64,000 bases of DNA from a virus (lineage: Duplodnaviria; Caudoviricetes), in IMG/VR virus record IMGVR_UViG_3300031853_000002, positions 1 through 64,000 of that record. One strand, 5' to 3'. Position 1 is the stretch's first letter; the number at the start of each line of letters is the position of its first letter. Shown here piece by piece: positions 6,005-6,704 of this stretch. A program made the position numbers and the translations under genes. The notes under the pieces are model-generated. The model did no database searches. It was given only the letters and a program-made list of their open reading frames with translations, and had not been told where the DNA came from.

Positions 6005-6704
6005 GAACTAGCAATCGTATATGGATAATTGAAACTCCTTAAAAATGTCCCAGACTTATACATTTTACTGATGCTGGGACGCACGGTGGATTTGGGAACT
6101 CGGTTTCTTTATTATACCGCAATTTAGTTACTTGTATCAGCTTCTGTTCCCGTTATTCAGCTGACCTGTCCGCGTTATGCACAATCGGTTACTTGGACTA
6201 TTGCAGGATAGTTCAGTTTCGCTCTGAACAACTGTTCACACAACACTGTTGTGTTACACTAAGCCTTTTATCCTGATTTTTCGGATTAGAGAAAGTGCTA
6301 GAGCAGGTTGCGACCCTACTCTCTACCTCTTGCATCTAGAATGGGCAGAGGTTGCACTATTCTCTCATCCCTGGAAGAATAGCTGAGCTACTCTACCAGC
6401 GCACTGTACTTGTTCGGAATCCCTGCTAAGACGACTTAAGTCTAGCGGCAAAAGGCGTGCATTGGTTACCAACATCTATCCCATTTTAGGGATATCTTAC
6501 AGTGCTAGACAGAGGTCTTCCTGTCCTATTGGTCACTCTTCATATCGTCACTGCCTTCACCATAAGTAACAGTAACTATCTCCACTTTAACCTATATAGG
6601 ACGTCGGAAGATAACGTTTGTGGAGAAGTCATAATAGGCTCCTCCTGGAAGCGCGTAAACGGCAGCTATGACTTTATTCAAGTCAGCGACCCACGGGACT
6701 CGCG
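6005..6704 (-). ncRNA. Candidate ~700-nt highly structured non-coding RNA
   Basis: No credible ORF; GC above flanks; many nested stems (GCACTGTA/TACAGTGC, CAGGATA/TATCCTG, CTCCAC/GTGGAG, GTCCCAG/CTGGGAC, GTTCAG/CTGAAC, TATCCC/GGGATA, ACACAACA/TGTTGTGT); ends at a terminator. Confidence 0.65.

Follow-up and report, generated by a model that had tools for sequence, protein, structure and literature searches.

The window analysed here is the first 64 kb (64,000 nucleotides, nt) of the virus record IMGVR_UViG_3300031853_000002, which comprises 163,307 bp and is rated 90% complete. A gap between genes at 5911-6704 is flanked by two genes of the minus strand (6705-6992 and 4336-5910). Read from the sequence, the region 5966-6706 is a minus-strand non-coding RNA locus that extends from the TAG stop codon of the upstream gene to a conserved terminator. 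As judged by the comparisons below, it represents a real and new family of large phage RNA, absent from Rfam 15, which has the layout of GOLLD but is not a member of it. The following features were identified:

6281..6706, minus strand, 5' domain ('Block 1'), about 430 nt, multibranched, from an 8-sequence alignment
6204..6275, minus strand, tRNA look-alike of the linker, 72 nt, from the predicted fold and compensatory changes in the G016 copy
6084..6201, minus strand, 3' domain, about 120 nt, an invariant lead-in plus an H-type pseudoknot core
6094-6165, minus strand, pseudoknot core, roughly 85 nt, model R1 from a 16-sequence alignment
6047..6080, minus strand, hairpin GUCCCAG...CUGGGAC, conserved together with its 20-nt loop, from homologue comparison
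5966..5998, minus strand, intrinsic terminator with an 8-bp stem and GUGA loop (5998-5979) and a U-run, the sole terminator-like site
5911..5965, minus strand, AT-rich spacer with a TTTAAATAG.TATATT box ahead of the 4336-5910 gene (context only)
6705..6992, minus strand, upstream gene, 95 amino acids (aa), no family, its TAG stop at 6705-6707 overlapping the first RNA helix (context only)
4336-5910, minus strand, downstream gene, 524 aa, 15 in-frame TAG codons (context)

The original prediction placed an RNA of about 700 nt at 6005-6704, bounded by an upstream stop and a downstream terminator, and did not state its strand. The RNA is present there, and the bounds hold if the region is read on the minus strand, where they correspond to the TAG at 6705-6707 and the terminator at 5998-5966. 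The minus strand was favoured by the orientation of the terminator, and by same-strand tRNA genes beside the 3' core (G028) and beside the tRNA-like module (G016) in relatives. G-U pairs outnumbered A-C mismatches (63 vs 9 in the 5' domain, 25 vs 6 in the 3' core), although these counts lean to the minus strand by construction because the structures were predicted on that strand. Six homologues kept the terminator, and its stem showed two compensatory changes among them (GGGAGUCU/AGAUUCCC vs GGGAGCUU/AAGUUCCC). The TTTAAATAG.TATATT box follows it, about 35 nt before the next ATG, and was invariant in five homologues although the N-termini of the downstream proteins differed; therefore, the downstream gene probably has its own promoter, and the box and spacer are probably the promoter and leader of that gene.

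The stretch at 6005-6704 folded beyond chance (z about -5.4 on both strands against dinucleotide shuffles), and the raised GC content reported for it was confirmed, at 0.444 compared with a mean of 0.328 (standard deviation 0.036) for 700-nt windows, which places it in the top 0.9%. No open reading frame (ORF) of at least 100 aa overlapped 5911-6704 under genetic code 11, with TAG read as Q or with TGA read as W, with one exception under the last of these, a plus-strand frame of 182 aa (6021-6569) that includes five TGA codons read as W. Homologues with an intact 5' end had no frame of the 5' domain (6279-6714) that was open throughout on either strand, also with TAG=Q and TGA=W. Among 57 indels between homologues, 46 were not multiples of three, and codon-like conservation was not seen. 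The region had also been described as the largest ORF-free stretch; this does not apply under the standard code, since in-frame TAG codons then interrupt the late genes, but with TAG read as glutamine (Gln) no true intergenic gap is larger.

In 25 related records, BLAST identified a full-length, patchily conserved copy in G003, a phage of 192 kb, and fragments in others. Scanning for the best-conserved string as a pattern detected 5 IMG/VR records and 13 JGI metagenome contigs, and two more copies came from contigs encoding homologues of P0003, a 170-aa protein encoded at 6989-7501 (minus strand). The modules described below were seen across twenty related phage and metagenome contigs. The full-length family included the window, L083/L103, L097, L104, L105, L106, L109 and L114, as well as L102 and L107, which were cut by contig ends. 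A more distant set contained the 3' core only (L087/L101, L088, L089, L098, L094/L095, L096, L099 and L100). The pattern of the 3' core had no match in 185,579 prokaryote genomes, no match was found in GenBank phages by blastn or tblastn, and a protein-pattern scan with the downstream gene gave no match. The 3' core is present as a single copy in the genome.

The original prediction counted at least a dozen helices in the region, and far more are present. The consensus fold of the 5' domain, based on eight sequences, comprised 118 pairs in about 22 helices, including a subdomain closed by GCACUGUA/UACAGUGC (6401-6505) and another closed by GGGAUGAGAGAA.../...UUUCUCUAAUCC (6283-6371). In this alignment 92.5% of the cells were paired, compared with 36-52% when the 3' partners were slid by 1-3 columns. 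Changes on both sides that still allowed pairing were found at 29 of the 118 pairs (3-10 in the slid controls), a number reached by 0 of 500 shuffles. The length differences of the 5' domain among homologues consisted of whole extra hairpins. Three of the four long-range pairings proposed originally were conserved in relatives, as part of the 5' fold or of the linker module: GCACTGTA/TACAGTGC and CAGGATA/TATCCTG covaried, and GAGA..AGTGC/GCACT..TCTC was conserved with no change on both sides. The fourth, CCTATT/AATAGG, was not kept.

The 3' domain begins with the lead-in AUAGUCCAAGUAACC...CGCGGACAGG, which was invariant and specific to the full-length family, and continues into the pseudoknot core, where the hairpin loop GGGAAC pairs with a downstream GUUCCC across a 31-nt stretch, UAAAUUGCGGUAUAAUAAAGAAACCGAGUUC. 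This stretch between the helices was invariant in 15 of the 16 aligned sequences (14 of them distinct), and L109 tolerates a hairpin inserted just ahead of it. Cells of the core alignment were paired in 96.6% of cases compared with 24-52% in slid alignments, and 11 of the 19 pairs changed on both sides, four of them in the pseudoknot helix; again 0 of 500 shuffles reached that number. The pseudoknot helix, in which 4 of 7 pairs changed on both sides and 92.6% of the cells were paired, displayed the variants GGGAAC/GUUCCC, UGGAAC/GUUCCA and GUGAAC/GUUCAC, which supports an H-type pseudoknot. The hairpin stem of the core had at least six different sequences among homologues, and its small inner hairpin changed from CGGU/ACCG to CCGU/ACGG. 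The hairpin at 6047-6080 occurred in L102 as GCCUCAG/CUGAGGC, which represents two compensatory changes.

The linker at 6204-6275 contains a module that the original prediction did not mention. An acceptor-like stem of 7 bp is stacked on a hairpin resembling a T-arm (6 bp, 7-nt loop AGCGAAA), which abuts the 3' acceptor strand; this is the arrangement of a tRNA-like element. The position of the anticodon arm is taken by a central hairpin of 7 bp, the loop of which has only 3 nt. The copy of this module in G016 (L078) follows ordinary tRNA genes on the same strand and showed compensatory changes in two helices (CAGGAUA/UAUCCUG to UAGGAUA/UAUCCUA, and GUUCAG/CUGAAC to GGUCAG/CUGACC). Linker content varied, and other members carried different inserts at this place, such as two hairpins plus a tRNA-like unit that had the canonical T-arm GGGUUCRAAUCCC. 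The unit of L105 (369-438, plus strand), which is located inside the linker, passed the Rfam tRNA threshold with 37.1 bits but had a 4-nt anticodon loop, and was reported by ARAGORN as 'tRNA-???'; like the module of the window, it is a tRNA mimic with a closed anticodon arm. In L106 the linker contained several more insertions, and one of these modules had an acceptor and T-arm like those of a tRNA. Among the core-only phages, upstream DNA was available for four lineages, and in two of them the core directly followed genes for tRNAs or tRNA-like units; in G026/G028, a tRNA gene and a tRNA-like unit are followed by the 3' core. The association with tRNAs that the original prediction cited for ROOL and GOLLD is found here in two forms, as tRNA-like modules inside the locus and as tRNA genes preceding the 3' motif in one related lineage (the G028 group).

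The 5' domain was always accompanied by the 3' domain wherever the contig extended far enough, and the two were inherited jointly in the full-length family, therefore suggesting that the domains work together. The 3' core occurred without the 5' domain in L087-L089, L094, L096 and L098-L100. Relatives also contained another module, here called 'X' (TTGCTGTAAAATGTC...GGTGG.TAGCAGACACAG.GAAC), which is non-coding, conserved and about 190 nt long. It preceded the 5' domain in L083 (about 6830-7010), L104 (about 8040-8210) and L106 (about 4520-4700), and the 3' core in the distant L094 and L099; in the window it was not found even when two mismatches were allowed. The core-only phages share patchy upstream blocks. 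One block of 62 nt was 98% identical between L087 (about 290-350) and L100 (about 4440-4500), about 190-250 nt upstream of the 3' core, and other shared blocks lay further upstream in these two loci, which suggests alternative 5' partners for the core.

At gathering thresholds, Rfam 15 identified only three tRNAs in the window. At E<=10, nothing was found in 5600-7000 for GOLLD, ROOL, OLE, raiA, HEARO, introns, RNase P or tmRNA; the two matches in this interval were at chance level (E=0.14 for a BMV pseudoknot model on a 5'-domain hairpin, E=1.4 for a Bacteroides sRNA model at the terminator). The eight homologous loci had no Rfam match at E<=1 except tRNAs. The lack of tmRNA, RNase P and intron signatures in the original prediction agrees with these searches. 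ARAGORN found no tmRNA in the window, and the tRNA-like unit closes on itself. For RNase P, only look-alike strings were present (AGUCC, GGUGA..AAGAGCG.ACC, AUAGAUG and GGAACAGAAGCUGAUAC), in the wrong element order; a P4-like pairing noticed by eye did not covary, its 5' strand being variable, or deleted in L106. Since the fold is kept through compensatory changes and has no family in Rfam 15, the suggestion of a new large phage RNA was borne out.

To our knowledge, few very large, protein-free-looking RNAs have been described from bacteria and phages, namely GOLLD, ROOL, OLE, raiA and HEARO. Recent work showed that GOLLD and ROOL assemble into cages made of RNA alone, although no function has been assigned to them. 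GOLLD has a 3' region that is widely conserved and a 5' region that is less so, and phage tRNAs are sometimes located in its linker (PMC12286853). The likeness of our locus to GOLLD is one of layout only, with a widely shared 3' pseudoknot core, a clade-specific 5' domain and tRNA look-alikes in the linker; both are large, ornate, phage-encoded and tied to tRNAs. They differ in that no sequence or structure similarity was detectable, the conserved 3' core is about 85-120 nt compared with the 416 positions of the GOLLD model, and the present locus is borne by crAss-like phages, apparently of the ruminant gut. ROOL is a pseudoknotted RNA of roughly 600 nt which was first found in rumen metagenomes. 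We know of no tRNA-bearing linker or two-domain layout in ROOL. ROOL occurs in phages and prophages near tRNA islands (PMC12286853). Our locus is likewise pseudoknotted, phage-borne and tRNA-associated, but did not match the ROOL model.

Smaller systems offer other likenesses. Species 1 and 2 of phage T4 (rnaC/rnaD) are structured non-tRNA RNAs of roughly 120-140 nt and of function not known, which are co-transcribed with the phage tRNA genes and released by tRNA-processing enzymes. They differ from the present locus in having no such pseudoknot core; here, the 5' RNA is longer, at about 430 nt, and in place of tRNAs there are mimics that lack anticodon loops. In MALAT1-mascRNA and the YrlA Y RNAs, a tRNA look-alike within a longer non-coding RNA is recognised by RNase P/RNase Z or tRNA enzymes. 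The embedded look-alike is shared with our locus, while these RNAs belong to other organisms and have no sequence relation to it, no Ro/Rsr gene is located nearby here, and cleavage is a prediction in our case.

Taken as a whole, the explanation we favour, with moderate confidence, is that of a conserved non-coding RNA locus of a small, uncatalogued family of phage RNAs, trans-acting, punctuated by tRNA-like units and GOLLD-like in its layout. The RNA starts flush with the upstream stop (P0002 in the window, a P0003 homologue in L097), which makes joint transcription with the early genes upstream of it probable. The look-alike would present an acceptor/T-arm stack to be read by RNase P and RNase Z, without a decoding part. 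As the look-alikes keep the acceptor/T-arm stack and lack the decoding part, tRNA-style punctuation appears to be the most economical reading, and is predicted to release a 5' RNA of roughly 430 nt and a 3' RNA of roughly 200 nt. Instead of being cleaved, the look-alike might also serve as a tethered tRNA mimic within one large RNA. The products would act in trans as structural RNAs and not as a switch for a neighbouring gene. Based on the GOLLD-like layout, our best guess for their role is a self-assembling or factor-binding scaffold, linked to tRNA or translation biology during infection.

Several points count against this explanation. The 5' domain is supported by only eight sequences, several of them close relatives, and the alignment from which its structure was predicted also served for counting covariation. 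The look-alike at 6204-6275 was not called by ARAGORN, and the Rfam tRNA model (RF00005) had no match in the region at E<=10. No convincing covarying helix was found between the 5' and 3' domains and the modules shuffle between phages, which leaves co-inheritance as the argument for one functional unit. Finally, the locus is absent from some close relatives with complete genomes, such as G002, indicating a dispensable, accessory element.

The shuffling also speaks for a second explanation, in which small structured RNAs, each independent of the others, and decayed tRNA genes are clustered at the locus and share a transcription unit, with no single large RNA and no cooperation between its 5' and 3' parts. 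The stable RNAs in the tRNA clusters of T4 and T5 are comparable. Besides the missing inter-domain pairing, the occurrence of the 3' core without the 5' domain, the position of 'X' before either domain (L083, L104 and L106, or L094 and L099) and the separation of the blocks by tRNA-like units would all be expected of such a cluster. However, long-range helices close the 5' domain into a single multibranched structure of roughly 430 nt, which is hence not an array of small units, and it was never found without the 3' domain and the family-specific lead-in where the contig reached that far. We therefore regard a cluster as unlikely, although it survives best among the alternatives.

A more novel reading, that the locus encodes a new two-part class of ornate RNA in which the tRNA look-alike is itself a working element, is quite unlikely in our estimation. 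The domains, alone or as multimers, would assemble into a particle that presents or hides the mimic, or the nearly invariant core would be a catalytic centre or one that binds ribosomes or release factors; in either case the RNA would aid the takeover of translation, possibly through the switch of TAG to glutamine.

A cis-acting role appears very doubtful. Here the RNA would be a leader or attenuator that senses, for example, the supply of suppressor tRNA and gates read-through of the terminator into the TAG-rich gene at 4336-5910. An aptamer-like structure followed by a terminator and a gene is the classic layout, the gene concerned has 15 in-frame TAG codons and is syntenic in L083, L097 and L105, and the tRNA mimicry suggests contact with the tRNA machinery. 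The conserved promoter-like box between terminator and gene, together with the different gene (P0003 family) that follows the 3' core in distant phages, weakens this reading. In addition, no alternative antiterminator pairing was seen, and 700 nt is far above the size of known leaders, as far as general knowledge goes.

Membership in GOLLD or ROOL, which the original prediction had considered, would require a very divergent RNA missed by Rfam models that are too narrow. The niche is the same, phage-encoded and tRNA-associated, and the layout is that of GOLLD, but neither the GOLLD model (RF02032, gathering 150 bits) nor the ROOL model (RF03087, gathering 99.1 bits) gave a match at E<=10, either within the region or anywhere in the 163-kb genome, nor at E<=1 in the eight homologous loci, the negative for ROOL being the weaker one as the control genomes contained no ROOL and it rests on Infernal alone. 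We consider such membership very improbable indeed. A self-splicing intron, another mobile RNA element or a protein gene in an unusual code is scarcely credible: large crAss-like phages are reportedly rich in introns and this phage recodes TAG, but group I and II models had no match at E<=10, the region is flanked by two genes that are each complete and distinct, between which the terminator and the promoter-like box are located, no reverse transcriptase or homing endonuclease is encoded nearby, and reading TAG as Q or TGA as W gave no conserved frame. The string AAAUUGCGG, which presumably resembles a classical group I P element, is a local covarying hairpin (CGGU/ACCG vs CCGU/ACGG) without a model match.

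The present family, found in crAss-like phages and unrelated to GOLLD, has the same odd layout, in which the 3' core is conserved, the 5' domain varies and tRNA-like units are inserted. That this layout is shared by unrelated families suggests an answer to a need that recurs across unrelated phages. The 85-nt pseudoknot core and the 430-nt domain are compact, strongly covarying targets for structural and biochemical work, and the closed-anticodon look-alikes tie the locus to the question of what phage tRNA mimics do.

The record belongs to a crAss-like phage in which TAG is recoded to Gln. crAss-like phages are abundant in animal guts. The terminase and portal of the phage matched PHROG families, which we take to be typical of crAss-like phages. 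A comparison by terminase identified 75 IMG/VR contigs as related, many of them 130-195 kb in length, and the phages carrying the RNA family apparently come from the ruminant gut. Long late genes are open only with TAG read as Gln, for example the gene at 54935-62629 with 40 TAG codons, and the late genes from about 11900 onward have dozens of in-frame TAG codons per long ORF. A tRNA with a CUA anticodon is encoded at 11083-11170 (plus strand, 88 nt; labelled 'Pyl' by ARAGORN). Early minus-strand genes, such as that at 6705-6992, are still terminated by TAG.

Homologues of the upstream gene were located 5' of the RNA in L083, L104, L106, L109 and L114. At the start of the RNA (6678-6707, minus strand), the TAG stop of this gene overlaps with the first helix. 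If this TAG were suppressed late in infection, the upstream protein would gain nine residues and ribosomes would enter the first helices.

The neighbouring genes are mostly without assigned function. P0003 borders the locus in both RNA families, being upstream of the RNA in the window and downstream of it in L087, L096 and L100. It had no Pfam or PHROG family, and its AF2 model was confident (pLDDT 84.7), yet no fold match in the PDB was obtained at E<=0.001. A 128-aa protein at 2766-3152 (minus strand) contains the Pfam domain of the fungal tRNA-ligase phosphodiesterase (2H), barely over the cut-off (23.6 vs 23 bits), and a DUF1810 protein is encoded at 3622-3987 (minus strand). Both families, the tRNA-ligase-type 2H and DUF1810, recur close to the RNA locus in the relatives L109 and L110. 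On L110, which encodes a P0003 homologue of 46% identity, a gene-free gap of 1.44 kb (2599-4039) occupies the same place, with a tRNA-ligase-CPD-like gene after it. This gap has neither the 5' domain nor the pseudoknot core and may thus hold a different large RNA.

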